Shown here: positions 120 to 33,240 of the stretch, piece after piece
How the letters are laid out: each line of letters begins with the position of its first letter
Numbering within the stretch: the first letter of the stretch is position 1
Source of the DNA: a virus
Virus record (IMG/VR): IMGVR_UViG_3300036792_000363
Location: 60,774-124,773 of that record
Length of the DNA stretch: 64,000 nt
Strand: one strand, 5' to 3'
Made by a program: the position numbers and the translations under genes
The notes under the pieces: model-generated
Database searches by the model: none
What the model saw: the letters and a program-made list of their open reading frames with translations, nothing else
Told to the model about the DNA's origin: nothing

Positions 120-809
120 CTACGCGGCAGCCTGATACGCCGCCAGCCGCTCGCGGTAGGCGGGATGGCTCGACGCGAACGCCACCCAGGTCTCCATCCC
201 CCCAGCCCTGTCCTCGACGAACTCCAGGTAGCGCAGCATGCGGCCCAGGTTCTCGTCGGGCCCGAAGCGGAAGAACTGGCCGTCCCCGGAATGACAGCCC
301 AGGTGCGCCGAGTACAGGAGGCGCTTACGGGTGTTGACCCGGCCCATGTGGACCCACAGCCCGCGAAGCCGGGCCTCGGCCACCATCTCGACCACCTCGG
401 CGCTGGCCTTGAACTCGTCGGTGCCGCCGATGAACAGCACGTCGAACTCGCCCCACGGCAGGTCGGCGCTGGTCCCCCCGTCCTGCACCGCGAGCGCCAC
501 CGGGTACCCGATCGAGCGGATGAGCGGCAGCCACGGGCGGGACAGCGCCAGCGACGCCTCGTGCTCGAACGGGACGTCGGGCGCGACCGCGAACTTGCAC
601 CGATCCGCCTGCGGCGCGAAGAGCCGGAGGAACTGGGTGAACTTCTCGTCGCCCACCCAGCCCTTCCCGAACTTCCCGTTGTCAGCGCACCACGTCACCC
701 CGTCGGGGATCGGGTTGAACTGCTTCGGGGTGACGATCTGCCCCAGGCGGCCGGCCTTCATCGCGGCGATGATCCGGTCGTTAGTGCAGGTGGTCCCGAA
801 ATAAAGCAC
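120..809 (-). CDS. dpdA: DpdA-like 7-deazaguanine DNA transglycosylase (TGT superfamily, actinophage type)
   Basis: WCADNGKF, FAVAPDV, LFIGGT, VHMGRVN and SGDG motifs typical of phage TGT-like/DpdA proteins; adjacent to QueF-like and YhhQ genes. Confidence 0.75.
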   Translation of the reverse strand: MLYFGTTCTNDRIIAAMKAGRLGQIVTPKQFNPIPDGVTWCADNGKFGKGWVGDEKFTQFLRLFAPQADRCKFAVAPDVPFEHEASLALSRPWLPLIRSIGYPVALAVQDGGTSADLPWGEFDVLFIGGTDEFKASAEVVEMVAEARLRGLWVHMGRVNTRKRLLYSAHLGCHSGDGQFFRFGPDENLGRMLRYLEFVEDRAGGMETWVAFASSHPAYRERLAAYQAAA

Positions 810-1065
810 GCGCCCTGACCTCGACCGCCCACGGCCCGGTGCTCCAGGTGGTGACCACCTCCGAGCCCTCGGGCACCAGGGCCGCCACCTCGCGGGTGAA
901 GTCCTCGTGGGTGATGGGCTCGGTCGTCAGGGCGTCGATGCGCGCGCCCAGCTCGTGCAGCTCCGGGGCCTCGTCGGCGTCGATCGTGATGACAAGCTCG
1001 CCGACGTCGGTCTCGTTCTTGAAAGGGCAGGTCTTGACGACCTGCCGGCGCAGGGTGACGTTCAC
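781..1065 (-). CDS. QueF-like T-fold protein (about 94 aa)
   Basis: CPFKNETD (catalytic Cys/Asp spacing of QueF) and ITHE motif; GTG at 1065 overlaps the yhhQ stop (GTGA). Confidence 0.65.
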   Translation of the reverse strand: MNVTLRRQVVKTCPFKNETDVGELVITIDADEAPELHELGARIDALTTEPITHEDFTREVAALVPEGSEVVTTWSTGPWAVEVRARALFRDHLH

Positions 1066-1622
1066 GCGGGCATCGCCACAGGGCCGGTCCTGCGCAGGCC
1101 CCACACCACCGGCACGGCCGCCAGCTGCACCCAGACCTTGCCGAGGACGAGCCCGGCGACGGCCGCCTCCCCCGAAGGCAGGTTAGCCAGGTGCAGGAAG
1201 ACCACCGAGTCGACCACGGCGGCCACGCAGCCGGAGGCCAGCACGGCGGGGACGAGCCAGCGGCGCTGCAGCGGGGTGTAGATCAGGAAGTCGGCGCTCT
1301 CCGAGCACAGGTAGGTCAGCCCCGACGCCAAGGCGATGTGCGGGCTGCTGACGCCGTAGGAGACGGCCGCGCCCACCACGATGGCGGCCACCCCGAGCCA
1401 GCGGCCGCCGATCCGCTGGGTGACGTCGCGGGCGGGGAAGCTGACCGCGGCGGCCCAGACGCCCGACGGGGCCAGCAGGCCGAAGCCGACGTAGGTCAGG
1501 TGGGTGCCCGGCCCGGCGGGGATCCCGACGTACGTGATCAGGTAGTTGGAGAGGACGATGGCGGCCACGTAGACGCCGAACGCAGCCGCGGCCCAGGGCC
1601 AGGTCTCTTTGATTTTGGGCAT
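1062..1622 (-). CDS. yhhQ: YhhQ/VUT-family preQ0/preQ1 transporter
   Basis: Multi-TM protein with SNYL, SFPARDVTQRIGG, SESADFLIYTPL and VVDSVVFL motifs of the Vut_1 family. Confidence 0.8.
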   Translation of the reverse strand: MPKIKETWPWAAAAFGVYVAAIVLSNYLITYVGIPAGPGTHLTYVGFGLLAPSGVWAAAVSFPARDVTQRIGGRWLGVAAIVVGAAVSYGVSSPHIALASGLTYLCSESADFLIYTPLQRRWLVPAVLASGCVAAVVDSVVFLHLANLPSGEAAVAGLVLGKVWVQLAAVPVVWGLRRTGPVAMPA

Positions 1623-7918: not shown

Positions 7919-8680
7919 ATGACTCAAGGCCGTCTAGCTGACGCGGAACCGCGCGTCTGCGTCATCTGCGGGACCCGGTTCACGCCCGCCCGGCGAAAGC
8001 AGGAGGCCTGCCCGGCGTCCACCGGGCGCACCTGCGCAATCACGCTCTCCAACCAGAAGCGGAGCGGGACGCGCAGTGCCGCGGGCAAGTTCGACAAGCC
8101 CGGGGAACGCCTGTGCGACCGATGCGAGCGGCCTTACCAGCCAGCGCGATTCGACTCCCGGACCTGCGGGGCCGACTGCCCGGGAAGGCCTGACGAGATC
8201 CGCGTCTGCGCCAACCCCGACTGCGCCCTCCGCACTCCTGTCGTCACGCGTGTCGTGGATGGCCGGGAGCTGCGGCCGGGCGAGTACATCGTCAAAGGCG
8301 GCAACCGCGGAAAAGCCAGCCAGCGGTACTGCTCGAAGAAATGCCGGGACCATGTGGCCCGCATCCGCCAGGGACAGCGGTTCCGCCGGTACGACGGCCT
8401 GACCCGCGAGGAGTTCACCTCTGCAGGGGAGGAGCGCGGCTGGCGATGCGACATCTGCGGCCAGGTCCCGCTCCCGGACTCTCGGCGCATCATGCTCGAC
8501 GAGCTTCCGTATCTTGTCGTCGACCACTGCCACAGGTCAGGCGAGCGCCGCGGGCTGCTCTGCGGGCCGTGCAACACGGCCATCGGGCTCCTGGCTGACG
8601 ACCCTGACCGCGCTGCCGCGGCAGCGGCCTACCTCCGGCTGTGGCAAACCCCGGCGGCGGCATCACCGCGCGCCGTATAA
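7919..8680 (+). CDS. Free-standing homing endonuclease, endonuclease VII domain with N-terminal Cys-rich zinc fingers
   Basis: CDICG...LVVDHCHRSGERRGLLCGPCNTAIG EndoVII signature; GGGAGGA SD before ATG 7919. Confidence 0.85.
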   Translation: MTQGRLADAEPRVCVICGTRFTPARRKQEACPASTGRTCAITLSNQKRSGTRSAAGKFDKPGERLCDRCERPYQPARFDSRTCGADCPGRPDEIRVCANPDCALRTPVVTRVVDGRELRPGEYIVKGGNRGKASQRYCSKKCRDHVARIRQGQRFRRYDGLTREEFTSAGEERGWRCDICGQVPLPDSRRIMLDELPYLVVDHCHRSGERRGLLCGPCNTAIGLLADDPDRAAAAAAYLRLWQTPAAASPRAV

Positions 8681-13284: not shown

Positions 13285-13578
13285 TCACCGACCGGAAATC
13301 GGCGGGCGGGGCGGCTGCGCGGGCGGCAGCATGCCCGGCGCCTGCCCGGTCGGGTTCAGGTGCTGGTAGGCGTGACCGGAGATGGCGTCGCCGGGCAGCG
13401 TCGCCAGGTACCCGCCCAGCCCCGGGTAGACGGCCGCCGCGCCGGCGGGGGCGGGGCCCGGCGGGGCGGGAGCCGGGGCGGCCTGCGGCGGCCCCGCCAG
13501 CTCCAGCGCCCGCCCCGCGCTGATCTCCTCCACCAGGTCGCGGGCGAGCGCCATCAGCGCCTCGTGCGGCCCGCTCAC
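13285..13578 (-). CDS. Pro/Ala-rich hypothetical protein
   Basis: GTGA-coupled to portal stop. Confidence 0.55.
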   Translation of the reverse strand: MSGPHEALMALARDLVEEISAGRALELAGPPQAAPAPAPPGPAPAGAAAVYPGLGGYLATLPGDAISGHAYQHLNPTGQAPGMLPPAQPPRPPISGR

Positions 13579-15182
13579 GACCCGCCCAGCCCGTTCCCCT
13601 TGGGCCCGGCGCTGATGGCGCTGCCGCCGGAGGCCGACGTGCCGGTGGCCTGCGTGCCGACCGGCACCTTGATGTGGATGGCGGGCGGCTGGCGCGACCC
13701 GGACGGGCTGCCCGCCCCCGTCGGAGGCTGCTGCTGGGCCTGCTGCGCGGCGGCCTTCGCCTGCTGCGCCATCTGGCGCTGCATCGTCTTCGCCTGCTGC
13801 TCGCGCTGCTCCTGGATCGTGTCGTAGTCCAGGTCGAAGCCGAAGTCCTGGGCCATCCGCTCCTCAAGCGCCAGCATGAACTCGGGGGTGACGTTCGCCT
13901 GCGGGCCGGCCTGGGACAGCTTGTCGAACGTGTCCTGGATCGCGCCCTTCTGCTCCTTGGTGAGCGGGCCCCACTTGAACTGCGGGTACTTCTGCGAGCC
14001 GAAATTCCAGTCGACGAACCGCGGGAAGATGTGGTCGTTGATGATCTGCGCCATCTCCTCCAGGATGCCCTCAAGCATCAGGAAGAAGGTGACGTCATCC
14101 TGCTGGCCGAAGTCGACCATCCGCGAGTCGCCCTGGCCGCCGCCGGTCGAGTCGTCGAACCACTGGGCCAGCACCGACTTGGACATCTGGCTGTTGTGGT
14201 GGTTGATCAGGCCCAGGAAGTCGAACCGCCCGGCCGCCTCGTTGAGCGTCTGCACGGTCCAGTCGGCGGTGGGCACCGCGATGTACTGGGCGAGGCCGAG
14301 CTGGGCGAGCGCGCGGATGAAGTTGCTCTTGTCCTCGGCCGGGGCGTTCGGCACCATCGTGCCCACCCGCAGGCCCACCGCCGCCCGCTGCGCGGCCAGG
14401 TGGGCGATGTAGTAGAGCTTCTCCTTCTTGTCGTAGTGGTAGAAGGCGCTCTCGAACATCGAGACCCCGTAGAACGGCCGCTCCGCCTCCTCGTGGGCGT
14501 AGTAGAGCGCCGTCTCCTTGGCGATCTTCACGTCGATGGTGCGGCCCTGGAAGAACGTCCGCTGCCGGAACCCGTTGAACTCGCCCTGCCCGTCGAGCAG
14601 GAAGGTGAGGGTCTCGCTCGGCCGCCAGTCGAGCTTGCGGAGCGTGTACTTGCCCTTGTTCGGCCCCGTGTCGGGCTGCCAGTACACCATCTCCCAGGCG
14701 GAGAACCCGTTGAACAGGGCCAGCAGCATCTGCTTGACGAACCGGTCGAAGCTGTGGGTCATGCCCCCCTGCGAGCGCGGCGCGAACAGCAGGTCCTTGC
14801 AGAACCTCGCCTCCTCCACCCCGCCGGTCACGCCGTCGGCCGGCACCACGTCCGCGTTCTTCATCGCCGCCAGCAGCGGCTTGGTCAGCAGCCGGTACAG
14901 CGCCCGCGCCTGGCCGTCCCGGCGGCGCATGGTGACCAGCTGGCGGATCGAAACCGGGTCGTCCCTGAAGACTTCCCAGCTGTCGCGGTACGGGGTGGCG
15001 AACGGGAGGAAGTACGGGACGCCGGTGGCGAAGTTGAGCGCCTCGTCGGGCGGCTGGACCAGCTCCTGGTCGTCGGCCAGGCGGTAGCCCTCCTGGCCGT
15101 AGCCCTGGGTGGAGACGCCCATCCCGCCGGGCGGGGCCATGCTGGAGGGTGAGCTGCCCTGCCCGCCGCCTGGAGTGGTCAC
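13575..15182 (-). CDS. Portal protein (DUF935 / Mu gp29 type)
   Basis: LLALFNGFSAWEMVY, PFYGVSMFESAFY, HHNSQMSKSVLAQ, INDHIFPRFVDWNF motifs. Confidence 0.85.
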   Translation of the reverse strand: MTTPGGGQGSSPSSMAPPGGMGVSTQGYGQEGYRLADDQELVQPPDEALNFATGVPYFLPFATPYRDSWEVFRDDPVSIRQLVTMRRRDGQARALYRLLTKPLLAAMKNADVVPADGVTGGVEEARFCKDLLFAPRSQGGMTHSFDRFVKQMLLALFNGFSAWEMVYWQPDTGPNKGKYTLRKLDWRPSETLTFLLDGQGEFNGFRQRTFFQGRTIDVKIAKETALYYAHEEAERPFYGVSMFESAFYHYDKKEKLYYIAHLAAQRAAVGLRVGTMVPNAPAEDKSNFIRALAQLGLAQYIAVPTADWTVQTLNEAAGRFDFLGLINHHNSQMSKSVLAQWFDDSTGGGQGDSRMVDFGQQDDVTFFLMLEGILEEMAQIINDHIFPRFVDWNFGSQKYPQFKWGPLTKEQKGAIQDTFDKLSQAGPQANVTPEFMLALEERMAQDFGFDLDYDTIQEQREQQAKTMQRQMAQQAKAAAQQAQQQPPTGAGSPSGSRQPPAIHIKVPVGTQATGTSASGGSAISAGPKGNGLGGS

Positions 15183-15893: not shown

Positions 15894-15917
15894 GACCACG
15901 GCGGTGAGCATCGAGGG

Positions 15918-15990
15918 TGGCCCTGGCTGGACTCGAACCAGCGCCGTACCGCTTAGGGGGCGGCCGCTCTGTCCACTGAGCTACAGGGTC
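15918..15990 (-). tRNA. tRNA-Arg(CCT), C33
   Basis: Cloverleaf; loop CC-CCT-AA; A20. Confidence 0.85.
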
Positions 15991-15991
15991 C

Positions 15992-16068
15992 TGGAGGCGG
16001 CACCCGGAATTGAACCGGGGTCCATGACGCTTTGCAGGCGACTGCCTAGTCCTCTCGGCCATACCGCC
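15992..16068 (-). tRNA. tRNA-Cys(GCA)
   Basis: Cloverleaf; U73; CCA encoded. Confidence 0.9.
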
Positions 16069-16079
16069 AGGTAATTGCG

Positions 16080-16153
16080 TGCGCCCGGAGGGACTCGAAC
16101 CCCCGGCCTGCTGCTTCGGAAGCAGCCGCTCTACTCCACTGAGCTACGAGCGC
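16080..16153 (-). tRNA. tRNA-Arg(CCG)
   Basis: Cloverleaf; loop TT-CCG-AA. Confidence 0.9.
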
Positions 16154-16154
16154 G

Positions 16155-16241
16155 TGGTGGCAGAACCAGGTGTCGGGCCTGGTATGTCCCGAAGGACGAC
16201 GGCTTTACAGGCCGCTGAGCGTGCCGCCGCTCACTTCTGCC
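16155..16241 (-). tRNA. tRNA-Tyr(GTA), atypical D and T loops
   Basis: Loop CT-GTA-AA, long variable arm, T loop CCCGACA, CCA encoded. Confidence 0.75.
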
Positions 16242-16242
16242 T

Positions 16243-16318
16243 TGGGGTGAGATACGGGAGTTGAACCCGCCTTGCGGGGTCCACGGCCCCGCGCCTTCCC
16301 TCGACGGCAAATCCCACC
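16243..16318 (-). tRNA. tRNA-His(GTG), C33
   Basis: G-1, C73, loop CC-GTG-GA, CCA encoded. Confidence 0.85.
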
Positions 16319-16326
16319 ATGTGAAC

Positions 16327-16392
16327 TGGCAGGGGGCGGACTTGAACCGCCAGTCCCTCGTCAGGTCCCGGATCCGCGCCGGGCTCCTGCCA
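16327..16392 (-). ncRNA. tRNA-like mini RNA lacking a canonical anticodon arm
   Basis: GGCAGG/CCTGCC acceptor-like stem and GGCGG-TTCAAGT-CCGCC T arm; only about 66 nt. Confidence 0.5.
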
Positions 16393-16398
16393 GCTGCG

Positions 16399-16470
16399 TG
16401 GGCGCAGAAGGGATCGAACCTACGACCTGTCCGGTGTGAGCGGACCGCTCTTCCGCTGAGCTATGCGCCC
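16399..16470 (-). tRNA. tRNA-Val(CAC)
   Basis: Cloverleaf; loop CT-CAC-AC. Confidence 0.9.
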
Positions 16471-16587
16471 TTGTTCGCTAGTGCGGGGTACCGGCTCTCC
16501 CGCTCCCTGGTTCACGCCACACCCCCTGCAGGACCCGGGCCCGTGGCGCGCACCTGGGCTGTATCCCGCGGGCACCAGGCCCGCACG

Positions 16588-16660
16588 CGCGTTCGGAGGG
16601 ACTCGAACCCCCAGCCAGCAGCTCCGTAAGCTGTCGCTCTATCCGTTGAGCTACGAACGC
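16588..16660 (-). tRNA. tRNA-Arg(ACG)
   Basis: Cloverleaf; loop TT-ACG-GA. Confidence 0.9.
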
Positions 16661-16671
16661 ATTGTCTTGCG

Positions 16672-16743
16672 TGGGCGTGCCTGGAATTGGACCAGGCACC
16701 TCTTCCGTGTCGGGGAAGCGCTCTGCCGATGAGCTACACGCCC
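16672..16743 (-). tRNA. tRNA-Val(GAC), C33
   Basis: Cloverleaf; loop CC-GAC-AC. Confidence 0.85.
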
Positions 16744-16745
16744 GG

Positions 16746-16761
16746 GTTAACCCTGGTCAAG
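16746..16761. promoter_or_regulatory. Palindromic operator copy GTTAAC-CCTG-GTCAAG
   Basis: Near match to operator; upstream of leaderless + strand ORF (-10 TACCGT). Confidence 0.45.
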
Positions 16762-16790
16762 AGACCGGACATCGCGTACCGTCAGTAAAC

Positions 16791-16925
16791 GTGCTAGCAG
16801 CCTTCATCATCGGAGCCGTGATCGGCTTCCTCGTCGGCAACTGGGTCGGCGGCTGGCGGGCCGTGATCAACGTCAGCCGGGTCGCCCACAACGAACTCAT
16901 GCGCAAGGCCAAGCTGCGCAAATAG
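16791..16925 (+). CDS. 44-aa single-TM membrane peptide (MLAAFIIGAVIGFLVGNWVGGW...RKAKLRK)
   Basis: Hydrophobic N-terminus, basic tail; -10 TACCGT shortly before GTG. Confidence 0.65.
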   Translation: MLAAFIIGAVIGFLVGNWVGGWRAVINVSRVAHNELMRKAKLRK

Positions 16926-16926
16926 G

Positions 16927-17002
16927 CGGTCGAGACGGGATTTGAACCCGCGTTCTTCACCTTGACGGGGTGACGGGGACGGCCGAACTCCCCTACACGA
17001 CC
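16927..17002 (-). tRNA. tRNA-Asp(GTC), C33
   Basis: Cloverleaf; loop CC-GTC-AA; G73. Confidence 0.85.
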
Positions 17003-17012
17003 ATGACCTGCG

Positions 17013-17085
17013 CTCTCCCGATAGGACTCGAACCTATAACCCGCTGGTTAACGGCCAGCCGCTCTGCCAATTGAGCTACGGGGGA
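17013..17085 (-). tRNA. tRNA-Asn(GTT), C33
   Basis: Cloverleaf; loop CC-GTT-AA; G73. Confidence 0.9.
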
Positions 17086-17086
17086 T

Positions 17087-17164
17087 TGGTGGCGGAGGCG
17101 GGATTCGAACCCGCGTACCCCGGGTTATGAGCCCGGACTGGGACCTAACTCCAGCTACTCCGCG
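17087..17164 (-). tRNA. Initiator tRNA-fMet(CAT)
   Basis: C1:C72 mismatch, three G-C pairs at base of anticodon stem, CCA encoded. Confidence 0.85.
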
Positions 17165-17195
17165 TCGTTGGCACCAGCGTACGCCTGGTGCCTCG

Positions 17196-17268
17196 TTCTC
17201 CCAACGGGATTCGAACCCGTGCTCTCGCCTTGAAAGGACGGCGACCTGGGCCACTAGTCGATAGGAGA
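17196..17268 (-). tRNA. tRNA-Glu(TTC)
   Basis: Cloverleaf; loop CT-TTC-AA. Confidence 0.85.
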
Positions 17269-17279
17269 GCGATGCTGCG

Positions 17280-17353
17280 TAGTCCTGGTCGGATTCGAAC
17301 CGACGTCAACTGAGCTGAGAACCCAGCATCCTAGGCCGCTAGACGACAGGACC
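17280..17353 (-). tRNA. tRNA-Glu(CTC)
   Basis: Cloverleaf; loop TT-CTC-AG. Confidence 0.9.
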
Positions 17354-17441
17354 GCGGCCCGGCGGCTTGGCCGACCGCCGGATGAGGGAGCGGCGCTAGC
17401 AGCCGCGCCCACGGGGCCGTCTTTAAGCGCGGCCGTTCATG

Positions 17442-17514
17442 TGCGCCGGGCAGGATTCGAACCCGCGCGCGACTCCTTAGAGGGGAGCGGCTCTATCCGC
17501 TGAGCTACCGGCGC
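17442..17514 (-). tRNA. tRNA-Arg(TCT), C33
   Basis: Cloverleaf; loop CC-TCT-AA. Confidence 0.85.
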
Positions 17515-17518
17515 TCGG

Positions 17519-17591
17519 TGGGCCGCCAGGGACTCGAACCCTGAACCCGCTGATTAAAAGTCAACTGCGCTGCCAGTTGCGCCAGCGGCCC
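17519..17591 (-). tRNA. tRNA-Lys(TTT)
   Basis: Cloverleaf; loop CT-TTT-AA. Confidence 0.9.
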
Positions 17592-17594
17592 CGG

Positions 17595-17627
17595 CTAGTT
17601 AACCGGAAACCGTTTCAGCTTAAACAT
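17595..17627 (-). CDS. 10-aa micropeptide MFKLKRFPVN
   Basis: AGGAGG SD 4 nt before ATG; AT-rich island between tRNAs. Confidence 0.35.
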   Translation of the reverse strand: MFKLKRFPVN

Positions 17628-17664
17628 GGAGCCTCCTGCGTCCGCTTAGTGAACGTCATGCAAG

Positions 17665-17737
17665 TAGCGGTAAAGGGACTTGAACCCCTGGCCGACCCAT
17701 TATGAGTGGGGCGCTCTACCGGCTGAGCTATACCGCC
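17665..17737 (-). tRNA. tRNA(CAT), elongator Met or Ile2
   Basis: Cloverleaf; loop CT-CAT-AA; paired 1:72. Confidence 0.8.
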
Positions 17738-17743
17738 GTGCTG

Positions 17744-17819
17744 TGGTGGGCGGAGGAGGACTTGAACCTCCAACCTTTTCCGTATCAGAGAACTGCTCGG
17801 ACCATCGAGCTGCCCGCCC
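17744..17819 (-). tRNA. tRNA-Ile(GAT)
   Basis: Cloverleaf; loop CT-GAT-AC; CCA encoded. Confidence 0.85.
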
Positions 17820-17823
17820 GGAG

Positions 17824-17913
17824 CAGAGGAGGCGAGACTCGAACTCGCACGGGGGTTTCCCCCCTAACCGTTTTCGGGACGGCATCCGGTAGGCCAGCTC
17901 GGATTACTCCTCC
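17824..17913 (-). tRNA. tRNA-Ser(CGA), C33
   Basis: Long variable arm; loop CC-CGA-AA; G73. Confidence 0.85.
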
Positions 17914-18080
17914 ATGACAAACTGTGATACTTCGGTTACCGTGGTGAACGAACTTCTCGCCCGAGAGTTCGTAGGTTAACTACCGGCGTGAAGCGCGGCC
18001 AGATTACCGGAGAAGCACCCGGGGCCTGACGAGGCCGATGACGTCCCCGTTACAAGGGCGACCGGGTGCTTCTTCCGTTG

Positions 18081-18170
18081 CGGAGGGAGCGGGATTCGAA
18101 CCCGCGGGGCCGCTCTCGCGGCCCACTGCCTTAGCAGGACAGCGCCTTCAACCACTCGTGCCATCCCCCC
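18081..18170 (-). tRNA. tRNA-Ser(GCT)
   Basis: Long variable arm; loop CT-GCT-AA; G73. Confidence 0.9.
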
Positions 18171-18255
18171 AGGGGCCGATCGCCCCCTCCCGGGAAGGGG
18201 ACTGACCGCCGCGGCATGCGCGACGCCCCGGGGCCTCGTGCCAACAGCCCCAAAG

Positions 18256-18340
18256 TGGGCGAGGAGGGACTTGAACCCTCACTCCTCTTGCGGGGAACCG
18301 GATCCTGAATCCGGCGCGTCTGCCGTTCCGCCACCCGCCC
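18256..18340 (-). tRNA. tRNA-Leu(CAG)
   Basis: Long variable arm; loop TT-CAG-GA. Confidence 0.9.
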
Positions 18341-18414
18341 GAGCGTCACCGTGCCGGGCGCGACCCGGACATGTGCTGGACCCCCCTGCCCGGTGACCAC
18401 GGCGGGGGTACACG

Positions 18415-18488
18415 AGCCGACGACGGGATTCGAACCCGCGACCTCAACCTTGGCAAGGTTGCGCGCTAGCCAGCTGCGCTACGTCGAC
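18415..18488 (-). tRNA. tRNA-Gly(GCC)
   Basis: Cloverleaf; U73. Confidence 0.9.
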
Positions 18489-18499
18489 ATTGAACTGCG

Positions 18500-18571
18500 A
18501 GCGGACGACGGGGCTCGAACCCGCGACCCCGTGCTTGGGAAGCACGTGCGCTACCACTGCGCCACATCCGC
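18500..18571 (-). tRNA. tRNA-Gly(CCC)
   Basis: Cloverleaf; U73. Confidence 0.9.
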
Positions 18572-18604
18572 ACGCCGGGGCGGCGCTGGCCGCCCCGGGC
18601 ACTG

Positions 18605-18805
18605 CTAGAACCGCTCTCCCTCTTCGGACTGGGCGAACGGGTCGATCACCTCGATGCCGCCGTCATCGTGGAAGTCGATCGAGACCTCGCTGCCGAGGCA
18701 GGTGACCTTGCACCTGGCGCCCCAGCTCTCGACCTTCACCTTCAGCTCGGCCTGGACGTTGCCCAGGCCCACCGCGACGTCGCCGCGGGGCTTACTAGCG
18801 CTCAT
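18605..18805 (-). CDS. Hypothetical protein (66 aa)
   Basis: GGGGAGG SD; overlaps upstream ORF; GC hairpin after stop. Confidence 0.6.
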   Translation of the reverse strand: MSASKPRGDVAVGLGNVQAELKVKVESWGARCKVTCLGSEVSIDFHDDGGIEVIDPFAQSEEGERF

Positions 18806-18902
18806 CGCCGGCCTCCCCGTCTGCCACCGTGACCGTGACCGACTCGGTGACCGAGAGGCCCTGCGAGTCGGTCGCGGTGACGGTGATGGTGAGGTCAGCC
18901 AC
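18795..18902 (-). CDS. 35-aa Ig-like beta-strand peptide (MADLTITVTATDSQGLSVTESVTVTVA...)
   Basis: Overlaps stop of upstream Ig-like gene; ITVTATD Ig-repeat pattern. Confidence 0.5.
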   Translation of the reverse strand: MADLTITVTATDSQGLSVTESVTVTVADGEAGDER

Positions 18903-19230
18903 CGGCCGGCGGGGTGACGGTGGTCGTGAAGACCGCGGTCCCGGTCCCGTTGGCCAGGGTGTTGGACCCCGCGGCGTAGGTGTCGCCGAAGGTGTCCGTC
19001 GGGGTGACGTCCATCGACTCGCTGGCCTGCTCGACCACGGTGACGGTGGTGGATGCCGAGGCGGAGTTGCCCGCGGCGTCAGTCGCCGAGGCGGAGATGG
19101 TGAGGGTGACCGGGTTGGACTGGCTGTCGGCGTAGGTCGCCGTCAGCGTCAGCTGCTGGCCGGCGATGTAGCTGGCCGCGTCGGTCGCGAGGGAGAGGGT
19201 GGGGGTGCCAGGGGCTGGCGGAGTGGTCAT
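18895..19230 (-). CDS. Ig-like/Thr-rich putative virion surface protein (111 aa)
   Basis: LTLTATYAD, TISASATDAAGNSASASTTVTV pattern; AAAGGAA SD; late motif upstream. Confidence 0.6.
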   Translation of the reverse strand: MTTPPAPGTPTLSLATDAASYIAGQQLTLTATYADSQSNPVTLTISASATDAAGNSASASTTVTVVEQASESMDVTPTDTFGDTYAAGSNTLANGTGTAVFTTTVTPPAGG

Positions 19231-19267
19231 GGCGTTCCTTTGATCGGGAGGACGTTGCCTCCTGACC

Positions 19268-19273
19268 AATCGC
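19268..19273 (-). promoter_or_regulatory. Late promoter motif variant GCGATT upstream of Ig-like gene
   Basis: CGATT core; short leader. Confidence 0.45.
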
Positions 19274-19277
19274 CACC

Positions 19278-19354
19278 TGGAGCCCGGAACCGGGTTCGAA
19301 CCGGTGACCTCATCCGTACCGGGGATACGCTCTTCCACGCTGAGCTATCCGGGC
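19278..19354 (-). tRNA. tRNA-Thr(GGT), C33
   Basis: Cloverleaf; loop CC-GGT-AC; CCA encoded. Confidence 0.85.
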
Positions 19355-19496
19355 GAGTCTGATTCCATCTGCCGTCTACCTGCTGTTTTCCCGAAGGAAG
19401 GGGAGGTGTTCTTCGACAGTCAGAGTTCGCGGGCGTGTGAACTACCGGGGGCTCTGACCCCCCGGGCGGCCTGCCCAGAACCGCGTCTCCTCCCGG

Positions 19497-19581
19497 TGTC
19501 CGAGGCGGGACTTGAACCCGCACACCCCTTTCGGGGCACCAGCACCTCAAGCTGGGGCGTCTGCCGTTCCGCCACCCGGAC
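19497..19581 (-). tRNA. tRNA-Leu(GAG)
   Basis: Long variable arm; loop TT-GAG-GT. Confidence 0.9.
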
Positions 19582-19737
19582 GCGGGGCCTCGCCAATCCT
19601 GACGGACCCGTCGTGGTCGCAGAGGGAGCCGTCCGCGTGCACGCGCCGCGGGTGCCCTGGCTGCGAGTAGTCGATGCTCACGACTACGAGATCCCCGGTG
19701 CAGTAGACCGCCTTCGCTGTCATACCGCCGAGGATAG

Positions 19738-19811
19738 AGCCCCGAACCGGAGTCGAACCGATGGCCTGCTCATTACGAAAGAGCCGCTCTGGCCAGCTGA
19801 GCTACCGGGGC
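19738..19811 (-). tRNA. tRNA-Thr(CGT)
   Basis: Cloverleaf; loop TT-CGT-AA. Confidence 0.85.
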
Positions 19812-19820
19812 GTGCCTGCG

Positions 19821-19893
19821 TTCCTCCTCATGGATTCGAACCACACACCTCTGACACCAGACGCCAGCGCTCTGCCAACTGAGCTAAGGAGGA
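19821..19893 (-). tRNA. tRNA-Gln(CTG)
   Basis: Cloverleaf; U1-A72; loop GT-CTG-GT. Confidence 0.8.
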
Positions 19894-19990
19894 GCATTGC
19901 CGGGGGTCTTTTCTCCCCCCGGGGTAACGGCCTTGTCCCTCCCGCAGAGGAGGCCGGGCACGGATTCGCAGGACGGCCGTGCCAGCCGAG

Positions 19991-20066
19991 TGGGCGACGC
20001 GGGATTCGAACCCGCAGGTGACGCGGCTTTTGGGGCCGCCGCATATGCCGGTTCTGCTACTCGCCC
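19991..20066 (-). tRNA. tRNA-Leu(CAA), C33, short variable region
   Basis: Leu-type D loop; loop CC-CAA-AA; only about 7 nt variable region. Confidence 0.7.
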
Positions 20067-20070
20067 GTTG

Positions 20071-20142
20071 TGCGCCGCCAGGGACTTGAACCCCGTTCCG
20101 TGGATTAAGAGTCCGCTGCATATCCCTACATGCTCGCGGCGC
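20071..20142 (-). tRNA. tRNA-Lys(CTT)
   Basis: Cloverleaf; loop CT-CTT-AA. Confidence 0.8.
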
Positions 20143-20337
20143 ATTGTTTCCGGAAGTCAGTCCCGGGACCCCGCCGCGCGGAGCCTGGTGTCGCCCGCTT
20201 GCGGCGGGCTCACAGGGCGTCGGCGGGTGCCCCGGGGAGCATGAGACCCGGCCAGCCGGCTGGCCGGGCTTACGAGGCGTGTCGACTCGCGCCCGCCGGC
20301 CGGCCGTTTGATTACGGTCCTGACCGTCATACCCAAG

Positions 20338-20408
20338 AGCGGATGACCGGAATTGAACCGGCGTGGTCAGCTTGGAAGGCTGATGCTCGGCCACTGAGCC
20401 ACATCCGC
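20338..20408 (-). tRNA. tRNA-Gly(TCC)
   Basis: Cloverleaf; U73. Confidence 0.9.
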
Positions 20409-20419
20409 ATTGAACTACG

Positions 20420-20493
20420 TGGTCACAGAGGCGATCGAATCCTCGAACCTACCGCTTTTCAGGCGGTCGCTCTTCCGTCTGAGCTATGCGACC
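20420..20493 (-). tRNA. tRNA-Phe(GAA)
   Basis: Cloverleaf; loop CT-GAA-AA. Confidence 0.85.
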
Positions 20494-20632
20494 TCGTTGC
20501 TTGTCCCCGGATTTCCACTGTCGCAGGAATACCGGGTAACCGCACCTCGGCACGCATGCACCAGGTGGCCACCCAGTGCTTCAGCCGGTCTCTGCCAGGC
20601 GCTACCCGGGAACTGCAACTCGGGCCGCGGCC

Positions 20633-20702
20633 CGGCAGTCGGCAGGAGTCGAACCTGCCCGTGCGCATACCCCGCAGAGGGGCCAGGGCAGTCGCCGCTG
20701 CC
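20633..20702 (-). ncRNA. Second tRNA-like mini RNA
   Basis: GGCAG/CTGCC acceptor-like stem and GCAGG-TTCGACT-CCTGC T arm; no canonical D or anticodon arm. Confidence 0.45.
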
Positions 20703-20704
20703 CG

Positions 20705-20781
20705 TGGTCGGGATGACGCGATTTGAACGCGCGGCCCCCTGGTCCCAAACCAGGTGCTCTACCAAGCTGAGCTACACCCCA
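20705..20781 (-). tRNA. tRNA-Pro(TGG)
   Basis: Cloverleaf; CCA encoded. Confidence 0.9.
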
Positions 20782-20847
20782 GTGCGCGTTGTTTAGGGTC
20801 CCGTAGGCAGAGCCGGATACGGGCCTTATGGCACAACGCGTAAAGCC

Positions 20848-20924
20848 TGGTCGGGGAGGCGGGATTCGAACCCACGACCTCTGCTTCCCGAAAGCAGCGC
20901 GCTACCAAGCTGCGCCACTCCCCG
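20848..20924 (-). tRNA. tRNA-Pro(CGG)
   Basis: Cloverleaf; CCA encoded. Confidence 0.9.
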
Positions 20925-21123
20925 ATGCTCCGGTCCTCAGAGCCCTGCTTCGCCTTGACGAGAGTCCCCGGCCGACGTCAGCCAGGTGCCTCAGCGGCCG
21001 CGTGGCGGCGGCCTCGGCCAGCAGGCCCGAGTGGGGGTGGAGCTGGCGGGGCAGACCGGCTAGTGCCTTGTTCCGCATTACCAGGACAGCTTCCCCGCGG
21101 CCAAGCGGCTACCTGCCCGAGCG

Positions 21124-21196
21124 TGGAGACGACGCGATTCGAACGCGCAACCGCTTCAGTGCGAGTGAAGTGCTCTACCAGCTGAGCTACATCCCC
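21124..21196 (-). tRNA. tRNA-Ala(CGC)
   Basis: Cloverleaf; G3:U70. Confidence 0.9.
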
Positions 21197-21612
21197 TAGA
21201 TATGCTGCCAAATCTTGCGCTGCCTGATCTGCCAGATCAGGGTGTAATCCACCCCGAGCTGATCCGCTACCGCCCGAAGGGAGAGCGGCGAGGATCTCGC
21301 CATCAGGACGTCTGCTTCAGTCAGCTTGGCCGCGGCGTTGTCTTCTCCGCACAGCGCCTCGGCTGCCGACTTCTTCCTGTAGCACGGGCTGCACCGAACC
21401 ACGCATTTGGCCAGTTCGGCTTCCCGCCGGGCCTTAGCCCAAGACCAGACCCTGTGCGTGATCTTGGTAGACGGATCCACATGATCAACTTCAGGGCTGT
21501 CCCAGGAACCGCAGTCGACGCACGGCCCATTTTCTGCAATCCACGCAGCACGACGAGCAGCCATCCACATGCGCATGTACTCTCGCTGCTGAACTGGATC
21601 TTTATACGGCAC
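21196..21612 (-). CDS. HNH homing endonuclease with C-terminal HTH, inserted in the tRNA array
   Basis: CVDCGS...EVDHVDP...KCVVRCSPCYRKK; lower GC; CGTAATA-N6-GTG start. Confidence 0.8.
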   Translation of the reverse strand: MPYKDPVQQREYMRMWMAARRAAWIAENGPCVDCGSWDSPEVDHVDPSTKITHRVWSWAKARREAELAKCVVRCSPCYRKKSAAEALCGEDNAAAKLTEADVLMARSSPLSLRAVADQLGVDYTLIWQIRQRKIWQHI

Positions 21613-21618
21613 GCTCAC

Positions 21619-21625
21619 TATTACG
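21619..21625 (-). promoter_or_regulatory. Class II promoter motif CGTAATA, 6 nt before GTG 21612
   Basis: N6 spacing. Confidence 0.6.
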
Positions 21626-21636
21626 TGAAGCGCCCG

Positions 21637-21709
21637 TGGAGCCTACGCGATTCGAACGCGTGACCTTTTGCATGCCATGCAAACGCGCTACCAGCTGCGC
21701 CAAGGCCCC
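21637..21709 (-). tRNA. tRNA-Ala(GGC)
   Basis: Cloverleaf; G3:U70. Confidence 0.9.
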
Positions 21710-21929
21710 AGATAGGCGCTCGGCCAGGACGCGATGCGAACACGCCCCGGCCGAGCGCCGGTCAAACTGGCGCGACGCCCGGTACAGAGTGATCCCCGGG
21801 AGTAGCTGCTCTATCTTCCGTCGCGCCCAAATACACGGCGGCGAGATGGCGCTCGCCGCCTGATGCTCACCGCTATGGTCTTGTCATGTAGCGAGCACGT
21901 CCCCCGGGCCGAGGCCCGGATGGTGCCAG

Positions 21930-22003
21930 CAGGGGCGGCAGGATTTGAACCCGCGACGCGCAGTTTTGGAGGCTGCCGTTCTGCCTGGCTGAACTACGCC
22001 CCT
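21930..22003 (-). tRNA. tRNA-Trp(CCA)
   Basis: Cloverleaf; loop CT-CCA-AA; G73. Confidence 0.9.
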
Positions 22004-22916: not shown

Positions 22917-24884
22917 CTACTGCTGCCACCCGGCCTCCGGCCCCCAGTCGTCCATGAACCCGCCCGCGTGCTCCATCCCGGCCCGGGACGGGGGCAGGAA
23001 GGCATCGGGCCCGAGCTGCGAGAGCGACGGCATGCCGGCGGGCGTGAACCCCTCCAGGCCGCTGTGCGGCCCGTAGAACTGGATCTGGCCCGGGTAGGCG
23101 CGCTTGCCGGCCGGGTCCTCGGCGCCGCCGACCTCCAGCGCCCCCACCACCGCGCCGGCCAGGGAGTCGGCCTCGTCCTTGGAGCTGTCGCCCAGGTGGT
23201 CGATCTTCCCGCTGGGCAGCCGCGACAGCCCCAGCAGCTCGATGATCGTCAGCTCCCGCAGCGGCATCTCCAGGCGGCCCTCGTACATGACGTCGCGCAG
23301 GGTCCGCCAGCCCTCCTCCGACACGTCGGTGGAGAACCGGTCGGTCTCGATGCCGTGGCTCTCCAGGATCTGCATCGAGTCCTTGCTCTGCCACTGGTCG
23401 AAGGAGAACCGCATGATCGGGAAGCCCATCCGGCGCAGCTCCAGGCACAGCATCCGGGCCCACCGGATCTGGATCTCCATCGGGGGCACCGCGCCGGCGT
23501 CGGACTGGTAGGACAGGGTGAAGTCGACCTTCACCACCGGGCGGCGCTCGCTCACCTGGATCTCCAGGCCCTGCTCGTCCGCGCCGGTGAGCGCGTGGTC
23601 CTGCCAGCGCTTCACGTGCGCCATGCTCACGCCGGCCCGGTCGCCGGAGGCCGCCAGGTCGGCGTGCATGGCGTACAGCGCGCCCTTCACCGCGAACAGC
23701 TCCGGGGAGAACGTGTAGACCGGCCGCCAGCTGGCCCCCTCGCGCACGTAGCCGACGCTGACCGGCGGCTGCGCGTACTCGGTGCAGCAGTCGCGGATGG
23801 CGGCCTCGTTGGCGAAGTAGGGGTTGATCGCCCGCCGCGGCTTGCACTCGTACTTGGCCTCCGCCAGCGCCGGGTCCTTCTCGTAGTCCTCCGCGAACGC
23901 CGCCTTGCCGGAGATGCGGGGGTTGGCCTCCCAGGTGGCGAGCGGGCCCGACACGTAGTAGCGGCTCGCCTCGCCCTTGGCCGCGTTGTCGGCCTTGCCC
24001 TTCGCGACCAGCTGCTGGATGGTCGAGCCGAGGTAGCGCGGGTAGCTGATGTGCACGTTCTTGAACACCTCGGGGAACCGGGTGGTGGCCGAGGTCCGGA
24101 TCATGTCCAGGATCGCCTCGGCGGAGCTGCTCGACTCGCGCTGCTTCGGCCCCGACGACCTGGCCAGCTCCGCCGCCGAACGGAAGGCGTCGATCTCGTC
24201 GGCGATGCCGAGGATCAGGTTGAGGCCCTCCTGGCTGTCGGCGTCGCTGTGGCCCGACACCGCCTCGATGTTGTGCTCGAACCTGATCGTGTCCAGCAGC
24301 GCGGTGGTGCGCTCGCCGCGGGCGCCGCGGCGCTGGCGGTCGGCGGCGTCGAGGATGTCGATGCCGCCGACCCGCTGGAACCAGCAGCCGGGCCGCTGCA
24401 CCGCGCGGCGCATGGGGGCGAAGAACGCGCGCTGGGCCTGCTTCGAAGAAGATGCGACGTTGAGGACGTGGATCGAATCCTGTTCGGGCATCTGGTAGTA
24501 AAGCTGCGGACTGCGCAGGCACAGCAGCAGGTAGCAGACCCGCATGGCGATCATCCGGCAGGTGTGGTCCTTGCCCCCGCCCTTGCCCCACTCCAGCTCC
24601 AGGAAGTTGACCATCCGGCACGGGGCCGACCAGTAGGCGCGCACGGCCGGGTCGGCGCTGTCGGCCAGCAGCTTGTAGGTCTCGGGGTAGTAGACCCGCT
24701 CGGCGTGCCGGACCGCCTCGTACTGCACGTCGGACAGCGGCGGGTTGGCCATGTACCCGCGGTCGCGCACGAACACGTCGAGCGGGACCGGCTCCTCCTC
24801 GAAGACCGAGAACCCGGGCGCGCTGGTGCCGGCGGCGCCGACGTTCCCGAGCAGCGCCGCCGCGGCGGCGCCGGGGGTGGTCAC
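22917..24884 (-). CDS. terL: Terminase large subunit
   Basis: Walker A WGKGGGKD, Walker B IADEIDAF, C-terminal RNase H-like domain (HADLA, FSFDQWQS, SKDEADSLA); GTG 24884 overlaps upstream stop. Confidence 0.9.
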   Translation of the reverse strand: MTTPGAAAAALLGNVGAAGTSAPGFSVFEEEPVPLDVFVRDRGYMANPPLSDVQYEAVRHAERVYYPETYKLLADSADPAVRAYWSAPCRMVNFLELEWGKGGGKDHTCRMIAMRVCYLLLCLRSPQLYYQMPEQDSIHVLNVASSSKQAQRAFFAPMRRAVQRPGCWFQRVGGIDILDAADRQRRGARGERTTALLDTIRFEHNIEAVSGHSDADSQEGLNLILGIADEIDAFRSAAELARSSGPKQRESSSSAEAILDMIRTSATTRFPEVFKNVHISYPRYLGSTIQQLVAKGKADNAAKGEASRYYVSGPLATWEANPRISGKAAFAEDYEKDPALAEAKYECKPRRAINPYFANEAAIRDCCTEYAQPPVSVGYVREGASWRPVYTFSPELFAVKGALYAMHADLAASGDRAGVSMAHVKRWQDHALTGADEQGLEIQVSERRPVVKVDFTLSYQSDAGAVPPMEIQIRWARMLCLELRRMGFPIMRFSFDQWQSKDSMQILESHGIETDRFSTDVSEEGWRTLRDVMYEGRLEMPLRELTIIELLGLSRLPSGKIDHLGDSSKDEADSLAGAVVGALEVGGAEDPAGKRAYPGQIQFYGPHSGLEGFTPAGMPSLSQLGPDAFLPPSRAGMEHAGGFMDDWGPEAGWQQ

Positions 24885-25054
24885 GCGGGCGGGACCCGCC
24901 CCGGCCACCACCGGTAGTGCAGGTACAGGTGGATGGCGATGGAGATCATCCCCAGCAGGAACACGCCTTCCGCGTCGAACGGGTTATGGCCCTTGCCCGC
25001 CCAGTGCAGGACGAAAGCGATGAGCCACAGGACTCCGGCGATGATCGCGAACAT
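24881..25054 (-). CDS. 57-aa two-TM membrane protein, holin candidate
   Basis: MFAIIAGVLWLIAFVLHW...GVFLLGMISIAIHLYL; GAGGAG SD; absent from ORF track. Confidence 0.6.
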   Translation of the reverse strand: MFAIIAGVLWLIAFVLHWAGKGHNPFDAEGVFLLGMISIAIHLYLHYRWWPGRVPPA

Positions 25055-31442: not shown

Positions 31443-31669
31443 CCGTCCGAGTCCTCGATCGCCTGCCGCACCGCCGCGTCCCTGCCGTCGGTGAGGTGGC
31501 GCAGCGCGATGACCAGCTGCGGGCCGTCGCCCAGCTTCGACAGCAGCCGGTCCCTCATGTCTGCGAACATGGCCGAAACCGTAGCAGGCAGGCCCGGCGG
31601 CAGGCTGGGGTTTGGCGTAAGCCACTTGGCCGCGTCCCGCACCGACGGGTGCCGGTCCTCCAGTTTCAC
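31439..31669 (-). CDS. 76-aa helical protein, possible Acb2/Tad1-like nucleotide sponge
   Basis: LPPGL...VSAMFADM...GDGPQLVIALRHLTDGRDAAVR resembles the hairpin family pattern; recalled similarity only. Confidence 0.45.
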   Translation of the reverse strand: MKLEDRHPSVRDAAKWLTPNPSLPPGLPATVSAMFADMRDRLLSKLGDGPQLVIALRHLTDGRDAAVRQAIEDSDG

Positions 31670-32835
31670 GTCTCCCCCAGCAGGGTCCTCAGCTCGTTGA
31701 TGGGGGCCGGGGCGGCCTCCGGGGAGGACATCGGCACGGGGGCGTCCAGCGCCTGCGGGCACAGCCTGCGGGCGATCATCGCCGCGGCCAGCGTCACGCC
31801 GGCCTCGCGGTCGTCGGGCCGGACGCGGGCGAGCACGTCCCACAGCACGGCCAGGGCGGCGTGCGCGCGGGCCGGGCCCAGCCGGGCGGCCAGCTCCCTG
31901 CGCGCCTCCAGCGCCTGCCCCTGCGCGGGGACCTGCGCGCCGCACGACAGCACCAGCACGTCGCGCAGGCAGCGCGACAGCTCCCTCACCACGTGGGCGG
32001 GGTCCCCCAGCGACGACAGCGCGCCGTCGAGGGCCGCGTACATGGCCGGGTAGTCGCCGTCGGCGGCCGCCTTCAGCAGGACGGGGGCGAAGTCGGTCTC
32101 CCCGGTCAGCTCGCGCCACAGCGCCACGCTGGTGATCCCGGCGGCGGCCATCTGGTCGAGGCGCACCAGCGCGTCCCGCACCCGCCCGCCCGACACCTCC
32201 GCCAGTTCCGCCAGCAGCTCCGGCTCGGCGTCGAACCCCTCCGCCGCGCACACCTTCTCCAGCCGCTCCAGGACCTGCCCGGCAGGCAGCGCCCGGAACT
32301 GGAACGGGCTGCAGCGGCCGCGGATCGTCTCCGGCAGCGCCATCGGCTGGGTGGTGAGCAGGATGAACACCGTGCGCGGCGGGGGCTCCTCCAGGATCTT
32401 CAGCAGCGTCTCGGCCCCCGGGCCGCTCATCGCGTGCGCCTCGTCGATCAGGAACACCCGGTACCCGGGCCCCGCCGGCCCGTACTGCGCCCGCTGGCGC
32501 AGCTCGCGCATCATCTCCACCGTCCCGTTGGACGCGGCGTCCACCTCGTCCACGTCCAGCGAGTTCCCGGCCAGGATGGCCGTGCAGCTGGCGCACGAGC
32601 CGCACGGCCACTGGCCGGGCGGCCCGGGCGGCGCCTCGCAGTTGATCGCGCCGGCCACGATCCGCCCCAGCGTCGTCTTGCCGCTGCCGGACTCGCCCGA
32701 CAGCAGGACGGCGGGGGGGAGGGTGCCCCGCTTGGCCATCAGGTACAGCAGCACCACCACCGGGCGCTGTCCGGCCACGTCCCCGAACGTGCGCGGACGG
32801 TACTTGGTCGCCAGCGCCTCGCGGGCGTCACTCAT
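31666..32835 (-). CDS. dnaX: DNA polymerase III gamma/tau-like clamp loader ATPase
   Basis: LATKYRPRTFGDVAGQ, GESGSGKTT, four-Cys zinc motif, EVDAASN, FLIDEAHAM, ETIRGRC. Confidence 0.9.
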   Translation of the reverse strand: MSDAREALATKYRPRTFGDVAGQRPVVVLLYLMAKRGTLPPAVLLSGESGSGKTTLGRIVAGAINCEAPPGPPGQWPCGSCASCTAILAGNSLDVDEVDAASNGTVEMMRELRQRAQYGPAGPGYRVFLIDEAHAMSGPGAETLLKILEEPPPRTVFILLTTQPMALPETIRGRCSPFQFRALPAGQVLERLEKVCAAEGFDAEPELLAELAEVSGGRVRDALVRLDQMAAAGITSVALWRELTGETDFAPVLLKAAADGDYPAMYAALDGALSSLGDPAHVVRELSRCLRDVLVLSCGAQVPAQGQALEARRELAARLGPARAHAALAVLWDVLARVRPDDREAGVTLAAAMIARRLCPQALDAPVPMSSPEAAPAPINELRTLLGET

Positions 32836-33061
32836 CGGGCCTCCTGCGTATGTCAGCGCCGAGGAACACGGGCCCCGGCTCGGTCTCGGGGGCGACGGGG
32901 AGCCCGGCCGCGCACACCGGGCCGGCGGACGCCAGCTGGTACCCGAACTCGGCCCCGCACTGCGGGCACGCGTAGTACCGCGCGTCCCCGGCCTGCTCCG
33001 GCTCCGCCTCCGAATAGCACTGCGGGCACTGCGCGGGCTCCGCCAGCAGGGGCTCAGCCAC
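32828..33061 (-). CDS. Small zinc-ribbon protein (CPQC...CPQC)
   Basis: Two CxxC pairs; coupled to neighbours. Confidence 0.65.
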   Translation of the reverse strand: MAEPLLAEPAQCPQCYSEAEPEQAGDARYYACPQCGAEFGYQLASAGPVCAAGLPVAPETEPGPVFLGADIRRRPDE

Positions 33062-33203
33062 CCTGCTGGTCCGGGTCCCCGGTCTCGTCGTCCACCGGCC
33101 TGGTGAACCCTCTGCCCGCCCAGTCCTCCTCGGCGGCGGGCGGCGGCCCCCCGTAAGGCTGGCCGAATTGGTGCGCCCTGCCGCTGAATCCGGGACTGTC
33201 CAC
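33054..33203 (-). CDS. 49-aa acidic hypothetical protein (MDSPGFSGRAHQFGQPY...)
   Basis: GGGGAG SD 7 nt before GTG; overlaps next start. Confidence 0.45.
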   Translation of the reverse strand: MDSPGFSGRAHQFGQPYGGPPPAAEEDWAGRGFTRPVDDETGDPDQQGG

Positions 33204-33240
33204 AGGCTTCTCCCCACCGCGTGGAAAACATCTGGTGCCC

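Follow-up and report, generated by a model that had tools for sequence, protein, structure and literature searches.

Cytidine at position 33 is a recurrent, isoacceptor-biased feature of maintained tRNA genes in a high-GC phage clade

The 64-kb window analysed here is the right-hand part of a 124.8-kb IMG/VR virus record (82% complete, 71% GC) and contains a large array of phage tRNA genes. About one quarter of the roughly 35 tRNA genes of this uncultured phage have cytidine at position 33 (C33), where nearly all tRNAs have uridine (U33), one of the most highly conserved nucleotides in biology and, according to textbooks, required for the anticodon U-turn. The array lies between the genes for the terminase and the portal protein, co-directional with both, and the minus strand carries all of its tRNAs as well as nearly all genes of the window. 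Other genes of the window encode a Mu-like portal, an E-type major capsid protein, a family-A DNA polymerase, DnaB, a beta clamp, a GH25 endolysin and a terminase. ARAGORN identified 33 tRNAs in the array, of which 31 were confirmed by the Rfam tRNA model at its gathering score. Positions 32-38 were taken from the ARAGORN anticodon coordinates, and the alignment was cross-checked by Infernal. The array, its C33 tRNAs, the tRNA-Tyr and the flanking genes are listed below.

15916-22003, minus strand: tRNA array, 33 ARAGORN tRNAs plus the sub-threshold Ser-CGA and Tyr-GTA
15916-15990, minus strand: tRNA-Arg(CCT), loop CCCCTAA, C33 at 15958, Rfam score 57.5 bits
16243-16317, minus strand: tRNA-His(GTG), encoded G-1, loop CCGTGGA, C33 at 16285, 23 bits on RF00005 with a clean ARAGORN fold
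16671-16743, minus strand: tRNA-Val(GAC), loop CCGACAC, C33 at 16712
16925-17002, minus strand: tRNA-Asp(GTC), loop CCGTCAA, C33 at 16967
17012-17085, minus strand: tRNA-Asn(GTT), loop CCGTTAA, C33 at 17053
17441-17514, minus strand: tRNA-Arg(TCT), loop CCTCTAA, C33 at 17482
17823-17910, minus strand: weak tRNA-Ser(CGA), loop CCCGAAA, C33 at 17877, ARAGORN relaxed threshold only
19278-19354, minus strand: tRNA-Thr(GGT), loop CCGGTAC, C33 at 19321
19990-20066, minus strand: tRNA-Leu(CAA), loop CCCAAAA, C33 at 20033
16155-16241, minus strand: sub-threshold tRNA-Tyr(GTA), the fourth tRNA with a GUN anticodon, U33, long variable arm, encoded CCA, T loop without the TTC motif
13575-15182, minus strand: Mu-like portal protein, the query used for collecting related phages
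22917-24911, minus strand: terminase large subunit, upstream of the array

An earlier note, made from the DNA letters, had described nine tRNAs with C33, anticodon loops starting CC, and intact stems and T arms. Eight of these (Arg-CCT, His-GTG, Val-GAC, Asp-GTC, Asn-GTT, Arg-TCT, Thr-GGT and Leu-CAA) are solid, being called by ARAGORN at its default threshold with C33 in a 7-nt anticodon loop, and for Asn, Val-GAC and Asp the C is also placed at the model's U33 by Infernal with top posterior probability. The ninth, Ser-CGA, does have C33 but is weak; its acceptor stem contains two mismatches, its D stem is poor, and it scores 32 bits on the tRNA-Sec model only, so that the description of intact stems does not entirely hold for this one. 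C32 accompanies C33 in all nine. With the rate of 3.7% found in other viruses (see below), eight C33 tRNAs among 34 in the window correspond to a binomial p of 3e-5. The codons read by the window C33 tRNAs are heavily used and comprise all Asp, Asn and His codons, 68% of the Thr codons and 45% of the Val codons; among the C33 tRNAs are the sole phage-encoded readers for Asp, Asn and His, and the main readers for Thr and Val.

To place the window in its clade, related phages were collected by means of the portal protein (80 IMG/VR loci), ARAGORN was run on these loci and the window, and unique tRNAs with 7-nt loops were counted. C33 was found in 110 of 497 tRNAs (22%), and purines at position 33 were essentially absent. 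At other invariant uridines of the same tRNAs C was found in 2.4% (U8), 1.6% (T54) and 3.4% (T55). Each array with at least ten tRNAs and a portal identity of at least 67% has 2-10 C33 genes, and the nearest outgroups have none (0/95), i.e. the Microbacterium phage Magritte (0/25; portal 51% identical, 62% GC) and two IMG/VR relatives with portals 55-57% identical (G001, 0/33; G002, 0/37).

The isoacceptors of the clade differ strongly in their C33 content (chi-square 89.8, 31 degrees of freedom, p 1e-7, uncorrected for phylogeny). C33 is frequent in Ser-CGA (5/6, 83%), Thr-GGT (8/10, 80%), Asn (10/18, 56%) and Asp (8/18, 44%), and intermediate in Val (16/42; 36-40%), Arg-CCT (7/22, 32%) and His (5/19), while Tyr is poor in it (1/14, 7%). 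It was never found in Arg-ACG (0/18), Gly-GCC (0/14), Ile-GAT (0/12), Ser-GCT (0/12), Phe (0/11) or Pro-CGG (0/11). C33 is rarer together with G37 (9/103) than with A37 (101/392), and is associated with C32 (odds ratio 2.2, p 0.002); the clade counts and the codons of the window revealed no obvious tie of the isoacceptor bias to anticodon bases 34-36 or to codon usage. C33 is thus real, clade-wide, recurrent and isoacceptor-biased.

The earlier note had regarded C33 as selected rather than decayed, and the comparison of C33 and U33 tRNAs within the clade bears this out. Stem mismatches are as few in C33 tRNAs (0.64) as in U33 tRNAs (0.70, p 0.76), and the core invariant bases are intact in 89% of the former and 81% of the latter. 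Alignments of C33 tRNAs only contain double compensatory changes in 16 of 20 stem pairs for Asn and 13 of 21 for Thr-GGT. Because they are as intact as U33 tRNAs and exhibit compensatory stem changes, the C33 tRNAs are, on this comparative evidence, maintained genes and clearly not decaying ones, and decay was rejected as an explanation. They look like working phage tRNAs, which would be expressed, charged and used in decoding. It is accordingly very improbable that the C33 genes are not decoders but decaying copies, or decoys soaking up host tRNA-binding factors. The low scores of Ser-CGA and His on the tRNA models, both below the gathering score, and the presence of tRNA-like mini elements in the same array would fit such a role, but the stem integrity and covariation speak against it, as do the scores of 43-60 bits on RF00005 for seven of the nine C33 tRNAs and the fact that sole phage decoders for Asp, Asn and His are among the C33 genes. 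One such mini element is a 67-nt sequence (16326-16392, minus strand) with good acceptor and T arms and a collapsed anticodon arm, called by ARAGORN at the relaxed threshold only.

The host of the clade is probably an actinomycete, and the phage tRNA-Asn closely resembles actinomycete tRNA-Asn. A search for host matches to the endolysin in genome contigs returned distant, irrelevant matches only. The tRNA-Asn of the likely host class does not share C33. A C33 tRNA-Asn pattern gave a single match in 401 Actinomycetes genomes, which was not tRNA-like and is at chance level (the reversed-pattern control gave seven matches), while the corresponding U33 pattern matched in 34 of 41 genomes. All 27 host-class tRNA-Asn genes that were fetched have U33, and the loop reads CU..AA in 26 of them. 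(The unpublished genomes G012, G020, G029, G035, G037 and G041 are counted in the tallies of 41 genomes and of 61 genomes given below, and probably in that of 401, and are excluded from the 27 sequences.) Compared with these host genes, the Asn tRNAs of the clade have C33 in 10 of 18 cases and stems that are far more varied.

A viral background was obtained from an IMG/VR scan for the tRNA-Asn anticodon plus T arm, in which every tRNA of the returned loci was considered after removal of the clade loci. Among the matches listed, which are not a strict random draw, 20 of 544 unique tRNAs (3.7%) have C33, 19 of them together with C32. C33, which occurs at a low level in viral tRNAs generally, is thus enriched six-fold in this clade (odds ratio 7.4, p 2e-20). 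In the high-GC cultured phages it was found in 1 of 35 tRNAs of Myrna, 2 of 31 of Bxz1, 3 of 28 of CcrColossus and 0 of 11 of Frankenweenie (66.7% GC), and in 0 of 24 of Francob (47% GC). The carriers are Val-GAC in Myrna (L161), Val-CAC and Val-GAC in Bxz1 (L164), and Pro-CGG, Pro-GGG and Ile-GAT in CcrColossus (L167). Genuine C32-C33 tRNA-Asn genes were present in 57 of 80 viral loci among the matches listed, over a range of 27-69% GC. An unrelated phage family with 47-50% GC (L191, L193, L205, L210, L218, L224, L230, L237 and L239; IMG/VR sample 3300045988 and others) has two tandem copies of a C33 tRNA-Asn; usually these nine loci also have a C33 Ser-AGA, and some a C33 Gly-TCC.

GC pressure as the sole cause of C33 was rejected, the non-clade phages at 60-67% GC having C33 in 6 of 163 tRNAs (0-10% per phage). 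A high GC content is not sufficient, because high-GC phages outside the clade have little C33 and C33 tRNA-Asn occurs at GC contents down to 27%.

According to the earlier note, C33 might also keep GUN tRNAs out of reach of TGT or DpdA-type enzymes. C33 would in this case shield Asn, Asp and His tRNAs from queuosine modification by TGT, or from competing with a 7-deazaguanine pathway of the phage. The observation behind the proposal is right, in that three of the four GUN tRNAs of the window have C33 (Asn, Asp and His) and Tyr-GTA has U33; moreover, Asn and Asp are above the average of the clade, and E. coli TGT is reported to need UGU as its minimal element (as cited in PMC1635277). The proposal itself found no support, since C33 is not GUN-specific, with Thr-GGT, Ser-CGA, Val and Arg-CCT being as rich or richer in it and Tyr being poor, and since only 6 of the 61 Actinomycetes genomes sampled (G006-G066) gave a match to TGT (Pfam), with none in the two that exceed 8 Mb. 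Queuosine therefore seems uncommon in the likely host class. In addition, a six-frame search of the whole phage record gave no match to TGT (Pfam), and DpdA enzymes work on DNA. TGT avoidance was rejected as the main cause, and queuosine avoidance is the least probable of the explanations considered here.

A gene for a VUT/YhhQ-type transporter (PF02592) is followed by genes for proteins of 107 and 229 amino acids (120-1622, minus strand), for which no sequence match in Pfam or PDB was found. The nearest named Atlas cluster of the 229-residue protein, by a weak match, is DUF6610, which has been assigned to DpdA4 DNA transglycosylases (PMC10516641). The transporter next to a DUF6610 look-alike may be counted in favour of queuosine avoidance; the region may, however, be a 7-deazaguanine DNA modification module, a weak lead to modification of DNA and not of tRNA.

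Another explanation is that C33 is changed after transcription, by C-to-U editing or by a C33-specific modification through a host or phage enzyme, so that the U-turn of the mature tRNA is normal or marked. The phage does encode a large protein of unknown role with Radical_SAM_N2 and Radical_SAM domains (within 31666-36093, minus strand), and the isoacceptor bias could mirror the specificity of an editor. C-to-U editing at position 32 exists in bacteria (Vibrio TrcP). On the other hand, we know of no editing at position 33 in bacteria. A six-frame search of the whole 125-kb record gave no match to a CMP/dCMP-type deaminase (PF00383) at E values up to 1, although the record is 82% complete and distant folds could escape such a search. 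Pfam scans of about 100 open reading frames likewise revealed no deaminase, RNA ligase, polynucleotide kinase, CCA-adding enzyme or pseudouridine synthase, and no known tRNase. Editing is improbable. The C-terminal third of the long open frame at 31666-36093 corresponds to a DnaX-type clamp-loader ATPase, and this frame probably represents two genes in the same frame.

The C33 sets vary from phage to phage; in L042, the closest relative of the window phage with a portal 91% identical, the Asn, Asp, His and Val-GAC tRNAs all carry U33. When the states of the 26 polymorphic isoacceptors are mapped on a portal-based tree of 19 phages, at least 81 changes are required, as compared with 82.3 with shuffled labels, which points to very fast turnover or to exchange of tRNA genes between phages. 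Orthologous pairs in which three stems are identical were used to compare the arms: the fourth stem differs at 20% of its positions when it is the anticodon stem, at 5% when it is the acceptor stem, at 7% for the T stem and at 1% for the D stem. Among the pairs in which all stems but the anticodon stem are identical, 24.5% differ at position 33. The rate of evolution of the anticodon arm is 3-4 times that of the other stems; the pairs Myrna-Bxz1 and Magritte-G001 are too diverged to calibrate such per-arm rates. The tRNA-Asn of L016 and L051 (6764-6836) have near-identical bodies and wholly different anticodon arms (GCAGG[TTGTTAC]CCTGT and GCTGA[CCGTTAA]TCAGC), so that the arm would seem to be exchanged patch-wise or to change very rapidly.

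We favour, at a probability of about 0.4, the reading that host enzymes exert a pressure under which the anticodon arm diversifies, C33 being one of the changes that are tolerated. Position 33 would then be a free pyrimidine in a subset of isoacceptors of this high-GC phage clade, and single U-to-C changes and their reversals would recur inside a fast-diversifying anticodon arm. The most likely driver would be host enzymes that read or cut this arm, e.g. defence or toxin tRNases, and C33 would rank among several changes in the arm by which recognition is altered without loss of acceptance by the ribosome. Under this reading there would be an enzyme that distinguishes U33 from C33. Evasion of nucleases, as the earlier note had proposed, is plausible and consistent with the fast-evolving anticodon arm. 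A precedent for escape through the anticodon arm is the T5 tRNA-Lys, which avoids the PARIS nuclease AriB by two anticodon-stem substitutions, AriB cutting between positions 40 and 41 (PMC12409363), and nuclease-insensitive phage tRNAs have been proposed as a general hypothesis in which position 33 is unmentioned (PMC10264068, van den Berg et al. 2023). Our literature search yielded no paper describing C33 in phage tRNAs. As to modification, bacterial TsaBD makes no base-specific contact with U33, and t6A should therefore still form. A T6SS toxin that ADP-ribosylates tRNA-Thr(GGU) was tried and rejected as a lead, as it acts on positions 35/36 and is uninformative on position 33.

Several points weigh against host-enzyme pressure. 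To our knowledge, no enzyme discriminates U33 from C33. The clade counts are of unique sequences that are phylogenetically non-independent, the portal tree may misdescribe a recombining tRNA array, and deviations at T54, T55 and A58 (2-3%) are about as common in the viral background as C33. The differing C33 sets of close relatives fit drift as well as fluctuating selection. The anticodon stem is also the most diverged stem between Myrna and Bxz1, and its fast evolution may partly reflect weaker constraint. Finally, gamma-toxin and colicin E5 cleave substrates with U33C no less well than the wild-type ones (PMC2275089, PMC1635277).

Near-neutral tolerance is a close rival, nearly as likely as host-enzyme pressure, whereas editing, decoys or decay, and queuosine avoidance are minor ones. 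It supposes weaker purifying selection on phage tRNAs than on host tRNAs, under which U33 and C33 are about equivalent for some isoacceptors of the clade, and transitions favoured by the strong GC bias drift both ways with no adaptive role. In line with it, C33 is without phylogenetic signal on the portal tree, only pyrimidines are found at position 33, and C33 goes with C32 in the clade and the background alike, as predicted by a local GC or context bias. The diversity at position 33 within isoacceptors (0.31) is similar to that at position 32 and at stem sites, every arm of tRNA-Asn varies more within this one phage clade than it does in host genes drawn from an entire bacterial class, and some enzymes are indifferent to U33C (PMC2275089, PMC1635277, PMC13276492). 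In contrast, neutrality does not readily account for a C33 frequency six times that of the viral background when non-clade phages of the same GC content have 0-4%, nor for the fact that the clade shows no relaxation at the other invariant positions. Many isoacceptors never have C33 (Arg-ACG, Gly-GCC, Ile and Ser-GCT among them), and since the GC content at third codon positions of the phage is near 96%, a truly neutral site would be expected to be mostly C, not 22%.

A more specific possibility, which we regard as doubtful, is that position 33 is itself a battleground. Here a defence or toxin enzyme of actinomycetes would need the uridine of the U-turn in particular tRNAs, and C33 would confer immunity on these phage tRNAs at a small cost in decoding. 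If so, hosts that differ in their enzyme repertoires would maintain both C33 and U33, and this would account for the isoacceptor bias, the fast turnover and the confinement of the trait to one phage clade.

The array shares with nuclease-insensitive phage tRNAs (PMC10264068, PMC12409363, PMC11464382) that it is large and differs from host tRNAs in the anticodon arm, but in those systems the changes are at or near known cleavage sites (36-41), whereas here they concern position 33, for which there is no known U33-dependent nuclease. A megablast of the array against cultured phages found no close relative. In size and coverage the array resembles those of large actinobacteriophages, such as Bxz1 and Myrna (cluster C mycobacteriophages), Magritte and the Streptomyces phage Francob, with about 25-40 tRNAs for most amino acids. 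In Francob the tRNA array also follows a terminase gene, and C33 is likewise present in Val tRNAs of Bxz1 and Myrna. These arrays differ in that C33 makes up 0-6% of their tRNAs as compared with 22-25% here, and Francob differs further in having an RNA ligase and a polynucleotide kinase, neither of which was found in this phage. Like the arrays of Magritte and Francob, the array contains an HNH endonuclease gene (21196-21618, minus strand; PHROG 4234, E 1.5e-26). Far from the array, on the opposite strand and within an open reading frame with a high GC content at third positions, ARAGORN called a 98-nt tRNA-Gly (8494-8591, plus strand) that Rfam does not report and that is probably a false positive.

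The cytoplasmic initiator tRNA-Met of fungi and plants is a natural, functional tRNA with a loop starting C32-C33, and shows that C33 is compatible with ribosome function. It is, however, a single, fixed eukaryotic initiator, whereas C33 in the phage clade is polymorphic across many elongator isoacceptors. The window holds a nearly complete natural tRNA set, one quarter of which is without U33 and yet bears every sign of kept function, and the dozens of matched natural C33/U33 variants in its relatives form a series for the role of U33 in decoding, modification and nuclease recognition. If host defence is the driver, the finding would point to undescribed tRNases of actinomycetes. If C33 is neutral, it would show how widely phage tRNAs can deviate from the rules of cellular ones, a point of consequence for tRNA gene finders and the interpretation of phage tRNA arrays.

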